Source of the DNA: a virus
Taxonomy: Duplodnaviria; Heunggongvirae; Uroviricota; Caudoviricetes
Direction: 5' to 3' (one strand)
IMG/VR virus record: IMGVR_UViG_2711768063_000004
Span: 1-37,205 of that record
DNA length: 37,205 bases
Under the pieces are notes generated by a model. The model ran no database searches. It saw only the letters and a list, made by a program, of their open reading frames with translations, and was not told the origin of the DNA. The translations under genes were made by a program, and so were the position numbers. Each line of letters begins with the position of its first letter. Within the stretch, counting starts at the first letter, position 1. Below are positions 1 through 14,701 of this stretch, piece by piece.

Positions 1-1053
1 TTACGGGGTAATGCCAACCGCTGCCGCCACTTTGTCGCCACTTGGCAGCGTTGCCAGAGGATTGAAACGGAGCGCCGTTTCCAGATGATCCGGTGCCAGA
101 TGAGCGTAACGCATAGTCATTTTTATATCGTGATGTCCGAGGATTTTTTGCAAAGCAAGGATATTTCCACCCGACATCATGAAATGCGCCGCAAACGTAT
201 GGCGCAGAACGTGTGTCAGTTGACCGCGAGGGAGCACGATAGACGTTTTTTCCATCACGGATAAAAATTGAAAATAGCAGTCTGTGAAGAAATTGAACCC
301 ATCAAGCGTCATGATCTCTTCGTAAAGCTCTTTACTGATAGGGATGCTTCTGTTTTTCTTCCCCTTCGTTCTTACAAAGGTAATTCGGTATTTGGTCACC
401 TGTGAACGAGTAAGATTTACGGCTTCTCGCCAGCGTGCGCCTGTGCTTAAGCATATCTTAACTACCAGTGCCAGAATTGGGTCCTGACGTTTGCAATCAG
501 CCAGCAATTCAACAATCTGCTCATGGGTAAGCCATGCCATCTCTTTTTCTGCGATGGTGAATTTTCGCATGTTCTCCAGTGGGTTCGGATACGACCATTC
601 GCCCAGGCGGGATAGTTCGCTAAAAACACTACTTAGATAGCTTTGCTCCAGATTAATGGTGACCGGGCTTGCTCCTTTCTTCCATTTCTCGCTGAAGTAG
701 ATCTCTCCTGTCAGGCGTTTATCTCGATAGTGGGCAAACATTTTAGAGGTGAGATCTGTTGCAAGGGGATTGCCCAGAGCGTCAACCATCAACAGCAATT
801 TGTCACAGACATGCCGCCCAGCGGTTAGAGATTTACCATGTAGCTTGAACCATAGCTCAACCACGTCTTTCAGTGTTCGACGATCCACTGATTCACCAAG
901 CCAGGGCTTTGCTTCGGTTTCTTCCATCGTGTGGCGCTCAAAAGCCAGAGCTTCGCCTTTGGTGGCAAATTGTTTACGCACACGGCGTCCGCTACGTCCG
1001 GCGGGGTAACATTCGCAAAGCCATTTCCCTGTGGTGAGTTTTCGTACTGCCAT
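1..1053 (-). CDS. int: Tyrosine integrase (P2/186 Int family)
   Basis: 350 aa; C-terminal catalytic region has the R...HxxR...Y pattern (LRHTFAAHF...HHDIKMTMRYAHL). Sits at the prophage end, co-oriented with the repressor as in P2/186. Stop codon is at 1..3. Confidence 0.85.
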   Translation of the reverse strand: MAVRKLTTGKWLCECYPAGRSGRRVRKQFATKGEALAFERHTMEETEAKPWLGESVDRRTLKDVVELWFKLHGKSLTAGRHVCDKLLLMVDALGNPLATDLTSKMFAHYRDKRLTGEIYFSEKWKKGASPVTINLEQSYLSSVFSELSRLGEWSYPNPLENMRKFTIAEKEMAWLTHEQIVELLADCKRQDPILALVVKICLSTGARWREAVNLTRSQVTKYRITFVRTKGKKNRSIPISKELYEEIMTLDGFNFFTDCYFQFLSVMEKTSIVLPRGQLTHVLRHTFAAHFMMSGGNILALQKILGHHDIKMTMRYAHLAPDHLETALRFNPLATLPSGDKVAAAVGITP

Positions 1054-1131
1054 AAAAAATGCCCTCCAGTGGAGAGCATTTTTACTGTATATATAACCAG
1101 TGTCAATGTATGATGCTTAAGGTTACATACA

Positions 1132-1503
1132 TCATAAGTACCGATATGATTGCGGGGCCGTTATGTTATCACCTAATGAACTTAGATGAAGTGGTTGGTC
1201 ATAGATTTTTAGATTACCAATTTCTATAGCAAAGGCTTTTTCTTTGCTATGAAAATAAGAGTCAAAAAATTGTTTACTGATACCTGCGTATTGGCTTGTT
1301 TTTTCCCATACAATACTCGGCTTATCTTCTATAACATCTGCAATGTCAAATTCAGCAACAACTTTACCGACAGGCATTGTTGAATAAATAACCACAGATT
1401 TTACATCCGTTTTTTTAAAAATACCTTTCCTGAATTCAAACTTCTTCGTCCCATTAAGGATTTTTTCAACAAATTCAGGTTTTATTGACAATAATACTTT
1501 CAT
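1132..1503 (-). CDS. ASCH (PUA-like) domain protein, accessory
   Basis: 123 aa; N-terminus MKVLLSIKPEFVEKILNGTKKFEFRK is typical of ASCH domains. AT-rich; overlaps the upstream gene by 29 nt; same strand as cI and int. Confidence 0.6.
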   Translation of the reverse strand: MKVLLSIKPEFVEKILNGTKKFEFRKGIFKKTDVKSVVIYSTMPVGKVVAEFDIADVIEDKPSIVWEKTSQYAGISKQFFDSYFHSKEKAFAIEIGNLKIYDQPLHLSSLGDNITAPQSYRYL

Positions 1504-2554
1504 CTACAGCACCAAGTTTAATTATATCGTCAAATTGCTCATCGGTTAATTTAACAACACCCCAACGGTTTTTAGGATTTAAACCAATTTCTTTGATTAG
1601 TTTAGCACGGTTTATTCTTTTAGGTAAAGCTAGATTATATGTAAAACTAATAATGTAAGGGTATCTTTTTGTTTGATAGAATTTTTTTAATTCATTTTCA
1701 GAGAATACACTGTATCGTGTACAATACTGTATGAATTCTTTTTCACTATAAAAAGAATCAATATGTCTAATATCTTCAACTACACATAATGACGTTGCGA
1801 CAGAGCGATAATACGCTCTGTTTTCTTTGTCACTTGTTCTGTAAATAACTAAAATGTCATGTCTTTTTATTTTTTTTACGTCATGCATTCTGCATATATA
1901 TATTTTTCTAATGCTATTCGCATGAGATACATCCGTGATTATATCAGGGGACTCTGTGGTGAGTATCGAATCAGGAAACAGTTTTGTATGGAATTCAGGA
2001 TATATGGATAACAGATATTTGTTTTCATCGTTTCTATTATTTATATACGGATAATCAGACAAAATATCCCCTGTAAGATGATTTTTATTCATCTCTCTTA
2101 CTAAGACTTGTTCACTCCCATTAGCAGTTTGTTTTGTAGCAACATGAATAAAACCATAAATTTTGAATAGTCTAATTAAATAATCATGTTTTTCAAAAAC
2201 AGTCACATAGATATCATCTACTTTTTCTTTTAGTGCATGATCAAAAATCTTTTTGAGGAATCTTTGTCCTCGTAGAGTCCCCTTTGGGTTGAATTTAAAT
2301 GTGCCTATTTTTAGATGTTTAGCACGAGTCAAAGGTGGTATTACGTCGTCAATAATACCACGCTCAATTTTCAAGTATAAAAAACCATCAATTGTGTTGT
2401 CATCATTATATAAGACATAAGCTTTTTCTTCGATAGAATTACATTTTTTATTGAACCAATCGATAAATCCATGTTGATAGTCTTTTTTTAAGGAGTCAAA
2501 AAAAACATCGTTAAAATTAACTTCATTAAACTGAATGTGTTTTAATTTTTCCAT
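1475..2554 (-). CDS. Putative GNAT-like acetyltransferase N-domain fused to an ASCH-like C-domain, accessory
   Basis: 359 aa. N-half shows a GNAT-like pattern (IDGFLYLKIE...KIGTFKF...LRGQRFLKKIFDHA...IYVTVF...YGF). C-half restarts with an ASCH-like motif (KYLLSIYPEFHTKLF...RHDILVIYRT). Domain calls are by eye only. Confidence 0.5.
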   Translation of the reverse strand: MEKLKHIQFNEVNFNDVFFDSLKKDYQHGFIDWFNKKCNSIEEKAYVLYNDDNTIDGFLYLKIERGIIDDVIPPLTRAKHLKIGTFKFNPKGTLRGQRFLKKIFDHALKEKVDDIYVTVFEKHDYLIRLFKIYGFIHVATKQTANGSEQVLVREMNKNHLTGDILSDYPYINNRNDENKYLLSIYPEFHTKLFPDSILTTESPDIITDVSHANSIRKIYICRMHDVKKIKRHDILVIYRTSDKENRAYYRSVATSLCVVEDIRHIDSFYSEKEFIQYCTRYSVFSENELKKFYQTKRYPYIISFTYNLALPKRINRAKLIKEIGLNPKNRWGVVKLTDEQFDDIIKLGAVDESIIVNKT

Positions 2555-3687
2555 TTTTTCACCAGTGCAATAAAGTTGGATAATTTTTGTGGTTTAATAA
2601 AGTGAGCGGCAATGTAAGCTACAATAAATGCAATGGTGCAAATTAGATAAATGTCTTTATGCACACCATCTGTTGGAATAAATTTCATTATGTATGCTAT
2701 GGCTGCAGCATAGAACATATATGTAAATATTTTACTAATTTTTGATTTAGTAGTCTTGAACTTCACTACTACAGAGAAGTCACCTAGCCGTGCGCCATCA
2801 TCCTTTTTAGCTTTCCAGTGGTAAATCATAGGATCGTTCTTACCAAAATTGACATTATTTGAAAAGTATTTTTTCCATGTCTCTGATTCAAGAATACGAC
2901 AACCTTGATAGCTTGAACCTGATGCCGATGCTTCGTCAACCATATCTCGTATAACGAAAAAATGATATTTGCTTGGAGTGCAAGAGGCGCTGGCCAGTGT
3001 GGTTGCGACTTCGTTTGGCAAATTTCTTTGTTCGTTAATTCTGAAATCTATAATATCAGAACGTTCAATATTGCTTTTTAAGAATAAATCTTTGGGATAG
3101 AATGTTTTAACAATTGCTTCAACATCAGATTCATTTAGGTTAATTCTGAATCTGATGTAGTAATTGCAATCATTGCAATTATTGCAATTATTGCAATTAT
3201 TGCAATTAGACAAACAATCCTGCAGATGGAAAAATACATATGTCCCATCATTCCTCTTTCTCAATGTGATTCTTTTGTCGAATGCCCCCCCTTGAAAATC
3301 AAGTTTTGTATTAACTATTAGTTTACCTTTTCGTGTTAAATTTAATAATAAGTGTTTCTCGTTTATTGAGTCTTTATTTATGACGTATTCATTAAAAACC
3401 GCGGTGATCAGTTCTTTGCTGCTATCTAGGTTCGTGCTTAAATCAATGAAGTCATCTTTTTCTTTTACAAACGGTAAAAATAAACAGATTGCACCCTGTT
3501 CTGAAATTTCATTATTTTGGGGGCGAGAAAATGATATGCCAAAATCTAGATGATAGCATTTTTGGGATGTGATATTCCAAAAGTTGATGTGTAGTTCGTT
3601 TATAAAATCTGCTTGAGTCTCATTATAATCCTCTCCTGGGCCTTTAGCGTAGTTTCGACATCCCCAAATAGCAAAACTTCTAGACAT
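2542..3687 (-). CDS. Membrane-anchored hypothetical protein with Cys-x-x repeat, accessory
   Basis: 381 aa; two hydrophobic helices at the C-terminus (IFTYMFYAAAIAYIMKF, IYLICTIAFIVAYIAAHFI); internal CNNCNNCNNCNDCN encoded by a 9-bp tandem repeat; AT-rich; starts 31 bp downstream of the cI stop. Confidence 0.55.
   Translation of the reverse strand: MSRSFAIWGCRNYAKGPGEDYNETQADFINELHINFWNITSQKCYHLDFGISFSRPQNNEISEQGAICLFLPFVKEKDDFIDLSTNLDSSKELITAVFNEYVINKDSINEKHLLLNLTRKGKLIVNTKLDFQGGAFDKRITLRKRNDGTYVFFHLQDCLSNCNNCNNCNNCNDCNYYIRFRINLNESDVEAIVKTFYPKDLFLKSNIERSDIIDFRINEQRNLPNEVATTLASASCTPSKYHFFVIRDMVDEASASGSSYQGCRILESETWKKYFSNNVNFGKNDPMIYHWKAKKDDGARLGDFSVVVKFKTTKSKISKIFTYMFYAAAIAYIMKFIPTDGVHKDIYLICTIAFIVAYIAAHFIKPQKLSNFIALVKKWKN
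3163..3207. repeat. Five tandem copies of 9-bp unit ATTGCAAT(T/C) inside the CDS
   Basis: attgcaatc then attgcaatt x4, read directly. ATTGCAAT is itself an 8-bp palindrome. In-frame (3 codons per unit), encoding a Cys-Asn-Asn repeat on the minus strand. Confidence 0.9.
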
Positions 3688-3718
3688 AACAACACCATTC
3701 GTTATCGGTCAAATAAAT

Positions 3719-4669
3719 TTATATTATAGTCATTAGGTTGAACTGGCATTTTGCAACCGGTTTGAGTTCATTAATTGCACAGTCAAAAGTAATATTTGAG
3801 TTTGAGCTCGTTACTCTTACTTTACCTACCGGTATTCTTATTACCTCGCGAACACTGATTTTTCCTTCAATTTCAACAAACCACAATCCATCGCTAATTT
3901 CGTCAAATTTCCCCTCAGCTAAGTATATCCTGCTGCCATCAAATATTAACATTGGATCTTTAATCGACTTAGGTACAAAGGACTTATCAAAAATGTAGTT
4001 ACCCTTCCTTTCGAGTGCACCATCGGCAAGCACGTACTTGTTTATGCACACAATGTTTTCATTTTGTGAACTTTTATTAAGTCCTTGCCCATCAACAAGC
4101 CATTTCAATGAGAATCCAGTTTCAAGGGCACACTGTATTATCCAATCAGCAGGGAATGAGTCACGCATATAGCGTGTAGCTAATGTACTTTTTGATATAC
4201 CAAGATGATCTGCCAGTGCTTGACGAGTTTTAAAGCCATAAGCCTTAACTATCCGTTCTATTGCCGCTTTTCCTCCCTGATTGAAATCGACTTGATGATC
4301 ATTATGAAAATTAAAGGAAGGTATATGATTGTCACTTTCAACGTCATCTCGCTGGTCGTCTTCGTTGTCTCCATTTGGAACAGTTGAGAGTATTTCTTCT
4401 GCCGCATCAGAACCAAACGCCAGCCATTCCAAAGATGCTCCTGTTTCCATTGAGCATATAACAACCCAATCAGCAGGAAATGTATCGCGAGCATATCTAT
4501 TGGCCATCGTACTTTGTGAAATACCAAGATGGTTACAGAACGCTTGGCGTGACTTGAAGCCATAAGCTTTGAGTATTCGCTCAATGACTTTCTGTCCCCC
4601 ACGATTCTGCATAACAATGGCTTTCGCATCCTCTTTGATATGGCGAAATGTGAATTTTTGAGTTGACAT
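3719..4669 (-). CDS. cI: 186 CI-type immunity repressor with duplicated N-terminal DNA-binding domain
   Basis: 316 aa. Two paralogous N-terminal modules (ERILKAYGFKSRQAFCNHLGISQSTMANRYARDTFPADWVVICSMETGASLEWL and ERIVKAYGFKTRQALADHLGISKSTLATRYMRDSFPADWIIQCALETGFSLKWL), then a C-terminal region with the 186 CI-like motif SDGLWFVEIEG. Divergent from the apl/cox-like gene. Confidence 0.75.
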   Translation of the reverse strand: MSTQKFTFRHIKEDAKAIVMQNRGGQKVIERILKAYGFKSRQAFCNHLGISQSTMANRYARDTFPADWVVICSMETGASLEWLAFGSDAAEEILSTVPNGDNEDDQRDDVESDNHIPSFNFHNDHQVDFNQGGKAAIERIVKAYGFKTRQALADHLGISKSTLATRYMRDSFPADWIIQCALETGFSLKWLVDGQGLNKSSQNENIVCINKYVLADGALERKGNYIFDKSFVPKSIKDPMLIFDGSRIYLAEGKFDEISDGLWFVEIEGKISVREVIRIPVGKVRVTSSNSNITFDCAINELKPVAKCQFNLMTII

Positions 4670-4757
4670 GTTCGTTATGTGAACCTATTCTCCGTTTTGT
4701 GATGTTGTTATCACGATTAAAACCAGCTCACCACAAGCTAAAAGGAGATGTTGCATC
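4670..4757. promoter_or_regulatory. Lysis-lysogeny switch region between divergent cI and apl/cox-like genes
   Basis: 88-bp intergenic region between divergent start codons; contains the dyad tgtgat-N6-atcacg (4698..4715) and an AGGAG ribosome-binding site ahead of the 4758 start. Promoter positions not resolved. Confidence 0.45.
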
Positions 4758-4979
4758 ATGACACCTAACATTTCAATAACTCTGAATACGCCACACGTCA
4801 CAATCGAGCGTTATAGCGAACTTACTGGCCTTTCAATCGACACAATCAACGATATGCTGGCAGATGGTCGCATCCCTCGCCATCGCCTTCGGAAAGACAA
4901 GAAAAGGGAAAAGGTAATGATCAACCTTGCTGCTCTTACCGTTGATGCACTTACTGATTGCAATGTTGTATTCAACTAG
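4758..4979 (+). CDS. Apl/Cox-like small DNA-binding regulator or excisionase
   Basis: 73 aa, first gene of the rightward early operon, divergent from cI. Positional analogue of 186 apl / P2 cox. Confidence 0.55.
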
Positions 4980-5011
4980 TTCCATTTTGGGGTACATCAA
5001 GAGGGGCGACT

Positions 5012-5521
5012 ATGTTTGATTACCAAGTTTCCAAACATCCACATTTTGATGAAGCCTGTCGTGCATTCGCACTGCGCCACAACCTGGTGCAACTGGCAGA
5101 ACGTGCAGGCATGAATGTGCAGATCCTGCGGAACAAGCTGAACCCAGCTCAACCTCATTTATTAACCGCACCAGAAATCTGGTTGCTTACCGATCTGACT
5201 GAAGATTCGACGCTGGTAGATGGTTTTTTGGCTCAGATTCATTGTCTGCCATGTGTGCCGATTAATGAGGTGGCAAAAGAGAAACTGCCACATTACGTCA
5301 TGAGTGCAACCGCAGAGATCGGGCGTGTTGCTGCAGGTGCGGTATCTGGCGATGTAAAAACCAGTGCAGGTCGTCGTGATGCCATCAGCAGCATTAACTC
5401 TGTAACACGACTGATGGCGCTGGCTGCTGTTTCATTGCAGGCCCGTTTACAGGCTAACCCTGCGATGGCGAGTGCGGTTGATACCGTAACTGGCCTCGGT
5501 GCTTCATTCGGTTTGCTGTGA
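5012..5521 (+). CDS. cII: Phage 186 CII-like transcriptional regulator
   Basis: Start taken at the internal ATG ([25 protein letters not shown]...); closely resembles 186 CII as I recall it; position after apl matches 186. Confidence 0.75.
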
Positions 5522-5528
5522 GGTGCTT

Positions 5529-5825
5529 ATGCTGTCGAAAGAACCATCATTTGCATCGCTGCTGGTAAAACAAAGCCCGGCAATGCACTACGGTCACGGC
5601 TGGATCACGGGTGAGGATGGAAAACGCTGGCATCCATGTCATTCACAAGATGAATTGCTGTCTGAATTGACCACGAGGAAACGGAGAAAGTCCAAATGTA
5701 TGCGGCAGAAAGTGAAATGGTTTATCAGTTTCGTTACAGAGGGGAGAGTTATTCAGTACCTGAAGATGATTTGCTCTGTTGCTATCCGTCATTGTCGGGC
5801 GATGGCAGTTACTTTTTCACGTTAA
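5529..5825 (+). CDS. Hypothetical early protein (boundaries uncertain)
   Basis: ATG with GAGGTG ribosome-binding site just after the cII stop; N-terminal part looks protein-like, but the last ~40 codons overlap the next ORF in another frame. Confidence 0.35.
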   Translation: MLSKEPSFASLLVKQSPAMHYGHGWITGEDGKRWHPCHSQDELLSELTTRKRRKSKCMRQKVKWFISFVTEGRVIQYLKMICSVAIRHCRAMAVTFSR

Positions 5826-5920
5826 AGGATGGGACGTTTTTACGGGGAGAGCAGGTTAAAGAGACGATACGAAAAAATGTATCTCCTCTTGAGCGTTACC
5901 GTAAGAACAAAGAACGATAG
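5696..5920 (+). CDS. Hypothetical early protein
   Basis: 74 aa ORF with protein-like composition (MYAAESEMVYQFRYRGESYSVPEDD...); overlaps the previous ORF by about 130 nt. Confidence 0.45.
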   Translation: MYAAESEMVYQFRYRGESYSVPEDDLLCCYPSLSGDGSYFFTLKDGTFLRGEQVKETIRKNVSPLERYRKNKER

Positions 5921-5942
5921 CTGCGTTTGGGGGATATGAAGT

Positions 5943-6284
5943 ATGGCAATTAATGGCGCTGCAGCAACTGTTCCATTAAGCCCCGGTGAACGCCTGAATG
6001 GACTTAATCACATTGCGGAGTTAAGGGCGAAAGTTTTTGGCCTGAATATTGAGTCAGAGCTTGAGCGGTTTATTAAAGATATGCGTGATCCACGGGATAT
6101 CAATAATGAACAAAATAAACGGGCACTGGCTGCCATATTCTTTATGGCAAAAATTCCAGCTGAACGTCATAGCATCAGCATTAATGAGCTGACCACTGAC
6201 GAAAAGCGGGAGCTGATTAAAGCAATGAATCATTTTCGTGCAGTGGTGAGCTTATTTCCCAGACGGCTAACCATGCCGAATTAA
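5943..6284 (+). CDS. Hypothetical early protein
   Basis: 113 aa ORF in the early operon between cII and dam; no motif recognised. Confidence 0.5.
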   Translation: MAINGAAATVPLSPGERLNGLNHIAELRAKVFGLNIESELERFIKDMRDPRDINNEQNKRALAAIFFMAKIPAERHSISINELTTDEKRELIKAMNHFRAVVSLFPRRLTMPN

Positions 6285-11608: not shown

Positions 11609-11723
11609 GCGCGCGTAAACCAAGTAGTATGTATCATCTAACTTTTACGAACAAGGTGTCCAAAATCTACGATAAATAGGTTAGACTTGTAGTACTTACA
11701 GTAATAATGCAAAAGGAAATAGC

Positions 11724-12419
11724 ATGAATCAGGTTCATGAGTCACATCAAATTAATCTTTTCACAACCAATGAAGAAATATCGCCTAGTCCTGCTATAAT
11801 TTTTCCAGTTCTACAGGAGTTAAGCGGATTTAGCCTCATCCCAACATTTGGACAGGAAGTAAATGCTTTATCTGGTGAGATGAAACAGATATTGATTATG
11901 ACAAATCCAGAGCAAACTTATCGTATTGAATTTGCAAGCCATGCAATCGTTATAAATGCTATGTCTACAAATCATGATGAATTTGTTGAGAAATCTGTAA
12001 ATGTTATCAGTGCAATGTTAAAGATATTTCCCAATAAGAAATTTAATAGAATTGCATTATTAAATGCACAGATTTTTACTGCTTCTTTGGATAAATATCA
12101 ACAGTTGTATGATAAATTATTCACATACAATGAAGTTTCTCCTTTTGAGTGGGATAACAGAATTGCGCTTCGTAAAAATATTGAATTTAATAATGAGGCA
12201 ATAAATAGCATCAATGCTATCAGTCGCAAAGAAGTTGCTGTTATGAATCATAATTCAGGCAAGCCATTTGATGCGATAATGTTTGAAATCGACTCTAATA
12301 CGTTGCCAACAAATACCGATTATAGATTTGATTTTAATCAGGCGATTCAAGTGTTGCGTAATTTGAATGATAATAACAGAAATTCACTGAGTGTACTGCG
12401 TCGTTATATTGAGTTATAG
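11724..12419 (+). CDS. Hypothetical protein, gene 1 of cos-proximal accessory cassette
   Basis: 231 aa, AT-rich, no recognisable motif or P-loop; AAGGAAA ribosome-binding site. Confidence 0.6.
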   Translation: MNQVHESHQINLFTTNEEISPSPAIIFPVLQELSGFSLIPTFGQEVNALSGEMKQILIMTNPEQTYRIEFASHAIVINAMSTNHDEFVEKSVNVISAMLKIFPNKKFNRIALLNAQIFTASLDKYQQLYDKLFTYNEVSPFEWDNRIALRKNIEFNNEAINSINAISRKEVAVMNHNSGKPFDAIMFEIDSNTLPTNTDYRFDFNQAIQVLRNLNDNNRNSLSVLRRYIEL

Positions 12420-12427
12420 GAACTATT

Positions 12428-13075
12428 ATGGCAGGTTATAGCGATTATATATTTAATATAGCGGCAAAGGTTATCAGCAATGCTGTGCCTATTAATGAGT
12501 TTAATGTAATAACTAATCGTTTTTTTAACAATCTCCATGATGAATTTAAAACGTCGCGTTTTCATGTGCATGATTCAGCCTCAAGTAATATGATTGCTGA
12601 GTCTGGTAACGTTGGAAGGATTAATTCACAAAGTAGTGAGATAGCCTTCGATATACAAGTGCAGCGTTGTTTAAAAAACGCGTTGCTATATCTTAAGTCT
12701 GAAAACTATATTGAAGGCGAGATAACTAAAACTCAAATTTATCTTGAATCTTTGTCTGAAAAAAACAAGTCATTATTTTTAGAAGTCTTTCAACGTGTCT
12801 GGGTTTCAATCTATTACTCACCAGAGTATCTTCGAAATTTTTTATACATAGCCGCATCTATGGACTATGAATTGATGAAGGATCGCGCAGATGTCCTTAT
12901 ATTAGGATGTTCTGCACATGAAGATGTTTTAGTTCAGGAGGCAGCTATTAGGGCTTTCGAATCTTGGGAAAATCCAGAGCATGCTTCACATTTGCGTGCA
13001 ATGAGAAAGTTTAATGAAAAATGGATTGAAGATTATAGACAAAGTACTATAAATTTTTTGGAGAGTCTAAAATGA
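12428..13075 (+). CDS. Hypothetical protein, gene 2 of cos-proximal accessory cassette
   Basis: 215 aa, starts 8 bp after gene 1; no recognisable motif. Confidence 0.6.
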   Translation: MAGYSDYIFNIAAKVISNAVPINEFNVITNRFFNNLHDEFKTSRFHVHDSASSNMIAESGNVGRINSQSSEIAFDIQVQRCLKNALLYLKSENYIEGEITKTQIYLESLSEKNKSLFLEVFQRVWVSIYYSPEYLRNFLYIAASMDYELMKDRADVLILGCSAHEDVLVQEAAIRAFESWENPEHASHLRAMRKFNEKWIEDYRQSTINFLESLK

Positions 13076-13587
13076 CATTCCTATTAAGGAAGTTTTCATA
13101 CCCAAAATGGGAGAAAAACAAAGGATTATCTCCAGATGAGTTTTCAGCTGATTCAATTACTGGCTGTACGCGCACAACTGCGAATAAGCTTTCAGTTTGG
13201 AGATCAGAAACCACTGATTTTAAATCTGATTATGTAGAAAAACTTATTGTTGCTTTAGCTACGACGATGCCGTCACCTGCTACTATAGACCTTGTTTGGT
13301 TGAAAGAAGAATGGTTTTTTGAACATGGAATTACATTGGAAGATAATCCAGGTGATACTAAATATGAAAGTGTGAATAATCTTCATAGCGACATTGCAAA
13401 TCTAAATCATAGGCGTCTAGCTATGGTAGGTTCACATATGCTTGAACAATTAGAGGGGGCAGGTAATTATCTCAGGGTTAGTAAAAGAGAACTGATTTCA
13501 CTTGTGGTTAAGTGGATGGAAAAAGAAGGTGAGTTTACTATAGAGGATTTGGAGGAAAAATGGCAGGAACAGTTGAATAAATTATAA
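13072..13587 (+). CDS. Hypothetical protein, gene 3 of cos-proximal accessory cassette
   Basis: 171 aa; ATGA start/stop overlap with gene 2 suggests translational coupling; no recognisable motif. Confidence 0.6.
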   Translation: MTFLLRKFSYPKWEKNKGLSPDEFSADSITGCTRTTANKLSVWRSETTDFKSDYVEKLIVALATTMPSPATIDLVWLKEEWFFEHGITLEDNPGDTKYESVNNLHSDIANLNHRRLAMVGSHMLEQLEGAGNYLRVSKRELISLVVKWMEKEGEFTIEDLEEKWQEQLNKL

Positions 13588-13617
13588 ATTATTCAACCTA
13601 TTGCGCTAGCCGATTAA

Positions 13618-13652
13618 CCCCATTTAAGTATATCAAATGGGGTATTATGTTT
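13618..13652 (+). terminator. Rho-independent terminator after the accessory cassette (possibly bidirectional with Q)
   Basis: 8-bp stem ccccattt / aaatgggg with a 9-nt loop, followed by T-rich tattatgttt; lies between the cassette stop and the Q stop. Confidence 0.5.
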
Positions 13653-13666
13653 CCTATATTTGTATT

Positions 13667-14701
13667 CTATGGTGTTAATTCATAGCTTCTAAAATTAATT
13701 ACTTCTTTAGCACACCATTTGTTTAGCTCTTTCATTTGTTCTTGTAAAGGAAGTAGTTCGTTTCTAACAAAAACCTTACTCGCCTTCTCCACATCCCCAA
13801 ACCCCCCAACATTATTCGGCATGATCCCCATCATCTGCGGCGGCACGCGGTGTGCCGCCATCATGTCATCGCGACTAACATTTTTGATATTCAAAAACTC
13901 ATCCTTCGCCGCGACTTCTGACAGAGGAATAATCTGAAGGCCGTCTTTTTTGCCGTTAGGCGAGTACATAAACAGGTTGCGGAAGTTGCCAGGGCCTTTG
14001 GCGCTTTTCATCGCATTGCGGAGGTTGTTCACATCCTCCTGGTTCTGCGCGGCATCGGTCATGTACATGATGAAGCCTGCATGGCTGCCGTTAATGTAAT
14101 ACTTCCGGCGGAACAGCGTGGCGGACTCGTTGAGCAGGGCTGACGGAATGGCAGAAAGATAACCTGGTAGGCCGTAGATCTCCTGGTTGATGTCAGGTTC
14201 CATCAGATGAAAAATGCTGCCTTTCGTGAACTGATACGGCTGGGTTGTCATACCGTATTGCACAAACCAGTAGGTATCCAGGTCTAACCCGCGTCGGGTG
14301 TATTTTGCCAGAGCAGGCTCAAGGGCGATAACTTCACCGAAGCGGTTCGTGCGTTTCTCCAGGTAGGCGTTACCAAATACCAGATAGTCCTGCACAAAAC
14401 GTGAAAAAGCCTGCTGGCTGAGCAGCGGGTGAGGGATGTAGGTACTGGTCAGAATGTTGCATTTCACCGCAATTGGTGAGCTGTGATGCACGGCGGCGCG
14501 GAAGGTTCGTGCCAGTCCGTCAAAGCTGACGGGCGGCTCATACCAGCGATCCATCTGTACGCATTCCACATAGTCCAGCAGTTCACGGCGGTCCAGAACA
14601 GGAACGGGATCGCCAAAGCTGAATGCTTCGGCTGAAGTTTGGCTTTTATGCTTGAGCTGATTCGTCGCCGCAGCGCGGTTTTTCTTACTCTTTCCCATCA
14701 A
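13667..14701 (-). CDS. Q: Portal protein (P2 gpQ family)
   Basis: 344 aa, the P2 gpQ length as I recall it; precedes the large terminase on the same strand. Confidence 0.8.
   Translation of the reverse strand: MMGKSKKNRAAATNQLKHKSQTSAEAFSFGDPVPVLDRRELLDYVECVQMDRWYEPPVSFDGLARTFRAAVHHSSPIAVKCNILTSTYIPHPLLSQQAFSRFVQDYLVFGNAYLEKRTNRFGEVIALEPALAKYTRRGLDLDTYWFVQYGMTTQPYQFTKGSIFHLMEPDINQEIYGLPGYLSAIPSALLNESATLFRRKYYINGSHAGFIMYMTDAAQNQEDVNNLRNAMKSAKGPGNFRNLFMYSPNGKKDGLQIIPLSEVAAKDEFLNIKNVSRDDMMAAHRVPPQMMGIMPNNVGGFGDVEKASKVFVRNELLPLQEQMKELNKWCAKEVINFRSYELTP

Follow-up and report, generated by a model that had tools for sequence, protein, structure and literature searches.

Bell, Wolf and Koonin (2020; PMC7641849) described (PIN-)GNAT-EVE fusion proteins whose genes lie nearly always beside an ASCH gene and often beside an AAA_17 ATPase gene. 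They predicted that the GNAT-EVE and ASCH genes form a toxin-antitoxin (TA) system, noted its prophage location in gamma-proteobacteria, credited the first description to Iyer et al. 2013, and reported that none had been characterised experimentally. In PADLOC, where PDC denotes 'phage defense candidate', such a pair is listed as PDC-M11. Here we analysed IMG/VR virus record IMGVR_UViG_2711768063_000004 (positions 1 to 37,205, the whole of which is called the window), in which three genes, designated A, B and C, lie between the repressor gene cI and the integrase gene int of a prophage. A and B make up a pair of this kind and were already known; gene C, which encodes a membrane-tethered protein of an unannotated family, and its linkage to the pair are the new part. 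Our reading, to which we assign a probability of about 0.5, is that the 2.6-kb insert reached the lysogeny operon by horizontal transfer, as moron cargo, and acts as one three-component system of TA-type abortive infection or exclusion.

The A-B pair and its described relatives

Judged by their sequence matches, A and B together are PDC-M11 and also the GNAT-EVE and ASCH operon type of Bell et al. (PMC7641849). The window shares with that operon type its prophage location, the ASCH gene alongside, and a GNAT domain fused at its C-terminal side to a PUA-like one; shared too are the longer relatives with an additional N-terminal domain, found near restriction-modification (RM) systems, and AAA_17 as an optional neighbour. 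Gene A matched PDC-M11A (PDLC04419) at 4.6e-139, residues 3-357 aligning to positions 11-357 of the 357-position profile, and gene B matched PDC-M11B (PDLC04425) at 1.9e-49 over its full length, the two genes being adjacent and on the same strand. PDC-M11 has models for these two proteins only, and neither gene C nor any of 48 diverse relatives of C matched a PADLOC model.

Gene A had no Pfam match. Its AlphaFold model (predicted local distance difference test score, pLDDT, 88.2) has two domains, and together with the PDC-M11A match this bears out the original prediction of a GNAT-like N-terminal half and an ASCH-like C-terminal half. The protein joins a GNAT acetyltransferase, whose activity is putative, to a PUA-like domain of the ASCH/EVE type. 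Residues R95, G96, R98, G134 and F135 are invariant in the family, R95/G96/R98 and G134/F135 standing at what we take to be the usual place of the GNAT acetyl-CoA-binding motifs, and the best PUA-like structural match to the C-terminal half was ZmASCH (5guq). The window's protein begins directly with the GNAT domain and has no PIN domain at its N-terminus. Relatives of 500 amino acids (aa) carry an extra N-terminal domain of ~150 aa with LLDTN...D.LITED-like motifs; a profile of this domain found no match among PDB sequences, so that a PIN identity in the long relatives is unconfirmed.

Gene B passed the Pfam cut-off for ASCH (1e-5), and its closest solved relative was ZmASCH of Zymomonas mobilis (PDB 5guq; phmmer 4e-9, residues 3-119). 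These matches identify it as a ZmASCH-type ASCH protein, and the earlier call of a stand-alone ASCH protein stands. ZmASCH binds nucleic acids and cleaves single-stranded RNA (ssRNA) in a Mg-dependent manner, with contributions from Tyr47, Lys53 and Ser128. The Tyr (IY.T) and the Ser (PQS) are matched in B, whereas the Lys is shifted by one position in the alignment (PVGK vs PVKS). Furthermore, ZmASCH is named a helix-turn-helix (HTH) domain-containing protein in PDB, whereas B has no HTH, and an RNase activity of B is putative, by likeness to ZmASCH. The B family conserves the canonical ASCH motif GxKxxExR and a C-terminal APQSxxY motif. The original prediction had also considered an N4-acetylcytidine amidohydrolase of the YqfB type. 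When B was searched against PDB with phmmer at E<=10, ZmASCH alone was returned, and YqfB (1te7, 9kyf), though among the targets, was unmatched. The catalytic triad of YqfB includes Thr24, to which Glu23 of B aligns, and Glu23 belongs to the canonical GxKxxExR motif. The idea may hold for B, but these comparisons lent it no specific support.

The combination had been thought to be unnamed, which does not hold for A and B. In addition to PDC-M11 and the operon described in 2020, the pair is annotated as GevT toxin and GevA antitoxin in Escherichia phage PhiR47_2 (PV340567.1), where it stands directly after cI in the repressor's direction. The window's A matched GevT at 57% over 359 aa (1.5e-125) and B matched GevA at 62% over 123 aa (1.5e-51). 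Gene order and overlapping genes are as in the window; the PhiR47_2 locus consists of two genes, without C. A lambdoid prophage of uropathogenic Escherichia coli (UPEC) 536 also has the pair directly after cI.

This is the slot of rexAB in lambda, held in these lambdoid relatives by the A-B pair itself, and the positional analogy to rexAB that had been drawn for the window gains from it. Both rexAB and the cassette are cargo apparently co-transcribed with the repressor, and both have cytoplasmic and membrane components. RexB is a polytopic membrane protein, whereas C is a large beta-domain on a two-helix hairpin; as to homology with RexA or RexB, no Rex family was returned by Pfam and PADLOC scans of A, B and C.

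Homologues of A were found by tblastn in lambdoid E. coli phages, SopEPhi, Lactobacillus phage Lj965 and Methanothermobacter phage psiM100. SopEPhi carries the A-B pair between its replication gene and portal gene, and this position, between the phage genes A and Q, is the tin/old hotspot of P2-like phages. The cI-int position is held by A-B in the window and in 10 IMG/VR contigs, and with the lambdoid and SopEPhi sites this makes three different prophage hotspots of cargo or defence genes for the pair. Among complete E. coli genomes, A was present in 310 of 5426 by blastn, the pair occurring in ~6%. In Lj965 (L038, 2750-4845), a cluster of four phage tRNA genes (Ser, Glu, Tyr, Phe) directly precedes the GNAT-PUA/ASCH pair, an arrangement that is possibly a hint of tRNA as the target, or a coincidence.

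Gene C and its linkage to ASCH and GNAT

We analysed 109 loci with a C homologue, which form 77, 51 and 31 clusters at 90%, 70% and 50% C identity, respectively. The loci were scored with locally built hidden Markov models, and those in which C had 2.3 kb or more of sequence on each side were counted as well-flanked; more distant C relatives were sampled through a metagenome scan only, with patterns taken from a subgroup alignment. An ASCH gene was found beside C in all 39 well-flanked loci. The GNAT-PUA fusion was present in 30 of them, and of the nine without it eight were examined, every one of which encoded a stand-alone GNAT. With L118 and one further locus added to these eight, ten fusion-less loci were examined, and a stand-alone GNAT of ~160 aa followed just after C in each (10/10), with an AAA_17 gene of ~175 aa next to ASCH in seven. 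When five of the stand-alone GNATs were tested, Pfam Acetyltransf_10/1/7 passed its cut-off in four, the match in L119 being weak.

Six gene orders were seen around C, those with the fusion being C>A>B, A>B>C, A>C>B or C> <B<A, and the stop and start codons of C and its partner genes often overlapped. Loci without ASCH or GNAT had either a contig end near C or a visibly decayed A, as in L032. The linkage in the sampled loci makes C a constant partner of ASCH and GNAT, with the PUA fusion, the N-terminal extension and AAA_17 as optional parts. Bell et al. 2020 (PMC7641849) make no mention of a C-like membrane protein.

The C family spans several phyla, with members in Enterobacterales, Bacteroidota-type contigs and diverse environmental contigs. 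Its loci were found in 186-like prophages of Enterobacterales, in conjugative-transposon regions (TraM/TraO/TraQ, PcfJ/K), and beside SspCD, type I and type III RM, HNH/Mrr and AAA_15-helicase genes. Environmental contigs (L041, 4038-6637; L058, 4026-6672; similar loci in L040-L064) carry a conserved four-gene module, AAA_17 < ASCH < > C > stand-alone GNAT, in which B and C are divergent and there is no PUA fusion. On the short contig L028 (3-3023) the arrangement is A > C > A, with GNAT-PUA on both sides of C, which suggests tandem or duplicated systems.

The model of C (pLDDT 81.9) is beta-rich over residues 1-315, with helices at 317-335, 344-363 and 366-380. Because basic residues flank the hairpin and there is no N-terminal hydrophobic segment, we infer that both termini (N-in, C-in) and the large domain lie on the cytoplasmic side. 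The protein had been predicted to be membrane-anchored with an unrecognised N-terminal domain of ~320 aa, and the model agrees with this in having a ~315-aa beta-sandwich and a C-terminal two-helix hairpin. Gene C had no match in Pfam, NCBIfam or PADLOC, the 48 diverse family members had no consistent Pfam family, and a BFVD fold search with C gave no meaningful match.

A word-indexed search recovered 30 and then 65 clusters of C relatives, all unannotated, and an exhaustive profile search recovered at least 1,186 representative clusters at 50% identity (E<=1e-3), 368 of them at E<=1e-30. An uncharged hydrophobic 19-mer near the C-terminus was present in 185 of 207 family members. Among members 20-29% identical, many polar residues were invariant or nearly so, namely H33, N35, D48, N99, Y177, R179, R181, D214, R216, N218, R221, H242, R264, E267 and H290, together with W291. 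The gene also contains a tandem repeat (Table 1), which encodes an (N-C-N)n run in a low-confidence loop (pLDDT <50 at residues 164-166); a 99% identical C protein from another sample (P0121) has one repeat unit fewer, so that the copy number is polymorphic.

The cI-int slot and its prophage setting

Three tightly packed minus-strand open reading frames (ORFs) had been predicted between repressor and integrase in markedly AT-rich DNA. Their coordinates were found exactly as predicted (Table 1), and the GC content was 0.27-0.38 over 1050-3750, compared with 0.45-0.52 in int and the early region. The overlaps within the cassette are 29 nt between A and B and 13 nt between C and A; at its edges, 31 nt separate the cI stop (3719) from the ATG of C and 78 nt separate the B stop from the int start. 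An SD-like (Shine-Dalgarno-like) GGTGA stands 7 nt upstream of the gene A ATG. Since the ORFs are long and intact in AT-rich DNA and each has many homologues, the cassette genes are not chance ORFs. No terminator-like site was found on the minus strand between cI and int, and promoter-like and terminator-like sites were not more frequent than in shuffled sequence. An Rfam scan of 1-6000 gave no match, and a tRNA scan of the window found none.

Table 1. Features of the cassette and its flanks in the window
Feature	Position	Strand	Remarks
P2/186-type tyrosine integrase, flank	1..1053	-	Pfam Int_N 1e-31, Phage_integrase 5e-22
Spacer between gene B and int	1054..1131	-	int-proximal part to ~1113 common to cassette-less relatives
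Gene B, 123 aa	1132-1503	-	ASCH protein
Gene A, 359 aa	1475-2554	-	GNAT + PUA-like fusion
PUA-like (ASCH/EVE-type) domain of A, residues ~170-359	1478..2047	-	
GNAT domain of A, residues 1-155	2090..2554	-	
Gene C, 381 aa	2542-3687	-	membrane-tethered protein, unannotated family
C residues 317-363, two hydrophobic helices (membrane hairpin), then basic amphipathic tail	2599..2739	-	
C residues 1-315, predicted cytoplasmic beta-sandwich domain, many invariant polar residues	2743..3687	-	
9-bp tandem repeat ATTGCAATT, 5.1 copies, inside C	3163..3208	.	Tandem Repeats Finder (TRF)
CI repressor, 316 aa	3719..4669	-	Pfam Phage_CI_repr 5.3e-60 (2 stretches), CI_C 1.7e-25

The integrase is ~99% identical in amino acids to E. 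coli integrases at the rcdA site. At its far end the window runs into host DNA, 99.9% identical to E. coli ybjL-ybjM-grxA, and it therefore represents a 186-like (Peduoviridae-type) prophage that is integrated at rcdA/ybjL in E. coli. Of 5426 complete E. coli genomes, 1134 carry this integrase. Four relatives were sampled, with integrases of ~96% DNA identity to the window's, and between int and a 189-aa cI they held nothing but a 63-aa ORF; the cassette is therefore an insertion in a variable slot. Megablast matches of relatives stop at query position 1113, which places the cargo junction at ~1113-1131.

The slot contents are of four kinds: the 63-aa ORF, C-A-B, a DUF3644-like gene with A-B, and a 349-aa unknown protein. 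Strain A30 has ASCH, a 359-aa protein and a C homologue, E. coli WP5-W18-ESBL-11 (L002) has ASCH, a 359-aa protein and an unrelated 260-aa protein, and Klebsiella phage 4LV2017 has the gene of the 349-aa protein alone in the slot. Compared with A30, sliding identity is ~97% from int to ~1800 and then falls stepwise to ~50-70% over the GNAT half of A, C and cI; compared with the second type (the DUF3644-like gene with A-B), the break lies at the B/A boundary. These alignments define the cassette region as a recombination mosaic with breakpoints inside the cassette. The int-cI interval across these 186-like prophages holds variable cargo, and not a conserved core of the lineage. A cI-int defence hotspot was described in P2-related, K139-like Vibrio phages by Rousset et al. 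2022, and the same arrangement of conserved cI and int flanks with differing content between them is found here; the window's slot is the E. coli 186-like counterpart of that hotspot.

The protein at the C position of L002 (7501-8283) has an RNKVIH motif (Rx4H, HEPN-like), C-terminal CxxC pairs and a weak match to PADLOC DUF3644 (2.4e-5), and is possibly another defence gene riding beside the A-B pair. The window's 316-aa CI has two tandem HTH domains and CI_C; in the E. coli relatives commonly found at this site CI is 189 aa long, and the long form is also present in L002 and 4LV2017. E. coli relatives L034 (4547-4816) and L035 (4501-5223) have extra ORFs between the rcdA flank (attachment site) and int; this interval, which holds no insert in the window, is another minor site for cargo. 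A second AT-rich island (11700-13700, GC 0.30-0.37) separates the gene for the replication endonuclease from the portal/terminase genes, at the position of the P2 tin/old defence hotspot. It holds three plus-strand ORFs at 11724-12419, 12428-13075 and 13072-13587 (231, 215 and 171 aa) that had no Pfam or PADLOC match, and is likely further cargo.

Proposed function and competing explanations

In phage 186, cI and int are transcribed from the lysogenic promoter, from which the cassette genes would be transcribed with cI; given this, the overlapping genes and the lack of a terminator, expression of the cassette in the lysogen is to be expected. On the model of other GNAT toxins, A would be a growth-arresting acetyltransferase, directed by its PUA-like domain to modified nucleic acid, most likely tRNA or aminoacyl-tRNA. 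B would hold A in check, through direct binding or through an action on the RNA that A targets; being present at every locus, as no other component is, it may control C as well. C would couple A-B to the inner membrane as an infection sensor or second effector. The net effect would be TA-type abortive infection or superinfection exclusion to the benefit of the lysogen. Our confidence differs among the parts of this proposal: we regard the identities of the cassette proteins as very probable and consider C to be quite probably a functional part of the system, and we assign the function in defence or abortive infection tentatively, at slightly under an even chance.

The nearest parallels for A as the presumed toxin are the type II TA systems with a GNAT-fold protein in that role (TacAT, AtaRT, ItaRT, KacAT); aminoacyl-tRNA acetylation by GNAT toxins is the precedent for toxicity in Bell et al. 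(PMC7641849). Unlike those toxins, A includes a PUA-like domain as an addition and is encoded ahead of its partner B in the operon, and whereas the antitoxin of the TacAT/AtaRT type is an upstream ribbon-helix-helix (RHH)/DUF1778 DNA-binding protein, the partner in the cassette is a downstream ASCH protein. Pfam scans of A, B and C at E<=1 found no RHH or DUF1778 family.

Several observations weigh against the abortive infection or exclusion reading. Most A-B pairs are without C, complete E. coli genomes having A in 310 cases and C in 7. The fold of C matches non-catalytic scaffolds only, which suggests no activity. PDC-M11 is a candidate system, for which the literature searched gave one listing in a strain survey, the toxin and antitoxin labels derive from one GenBank annotation (PV340567.1), and the literature searched yielded no paper describing GevTA and no experimental paper on PDC-M11, GevTA, GNAT-EVE or an anti-phage ASCH and acetyltransferase pair. 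The transcription from the lysogenic promoter is proposed from knowledge of phage 186, and the substrate of A from other GNAT toxins. Finally, B proteins 97.6% identical to the window's stand beside A proteins just 71-85% identical to the window's A, which is unusual for a tightly co-evolving binding antitoxin; the conservation of B despite a divergent A agrees with an antitoxin whose point of action is the substrate or a conserved surface, and not a contact face under rapid co-evolution.

A bolder form of this proposal, which we consider doubtful, is that C, GNAT and ASCH constitute a widespread, previously unrecognised three-component membrane-associated immune system. Its effector chemistry would be acetylation of an RNA base or aminoacyl-tRNA, with the GNAT as writer, the fused PUA-like domain as reader and ASCH as an eraser or nuclease serving as an enzymatic antitoxin. 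C would sense infection or act on the membrane as a second effector, and the two-gene GevTA/PDC-M11 would be a reduced form.

Next in plausibility, though unlikely, is that the cassette is only a prophage-stabilising addiction module, in which A and B (with C) kill or arrest cells losing the prophage and have no role against other phages. The annotation of the TA-like pair as toxin and antitoxin, the TA prediction of Bell et al. (PMC7641849) and the place of the cassette beside int and cI, where excision loss would matter, are all compatible with such a module. However, the same modules occur in non-phage defence islands beside SspCD, type I/III RM and HNH/Mrr genes as well as in known prophage defence hotspots, and PADLOC ranks the pair among phage defence candidates.

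It is rather improbable that the genes serve nucleic-acid modification or counter-defence, with the GNAT acetylating a (modified) DNA or RNA base, ASCH and the PUA-like domain as readers, and self-marking, protection of phage DNA or the disabling of host restriction as the purpose. Bell et al. (PMC7641849) report that Iyer et al. 2013 proposed DNA-base acetylation and suggest that GNAT-EVE may protect phages from host RM, which also counts against our preferred reading; AAA_17 P-loop kinase-like genes at many loci and the frequent linkage to RM point the same way. Nevertheless, the genes are in the lysogeny operon and not the lytic one, nothing like the self-marking logic of a methylase is apparent, the homologous pair carries toxin and antitoxin annotations, and the closest solved relative of B acts on ssRNA.

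That A-B is one unit beside which C, an independent membrane protein (e.g. for superinfection exclusion), happened to land is very unlikely: most A-B pairs do lack C, L002 has an unrelated gene at the C position and recombination breakpoints separate C from B, but in the well-flanked loci C was never found without ASCH and GNAT and was adjacent to ASCH in 39 of 39, across the six gene orders.

With C added, the unit for experimental work becomes three genes rather than two, and the linkage points to ASCH rather than the GNAT-PUA fusion as the constant hub of these systems. It also gives the unannotated C family a concrete functional context. If the cassette is a defence or TA module expressed in the lysogen, it would be one of the common factors that set phage host range in E. 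coli and related bacteria.

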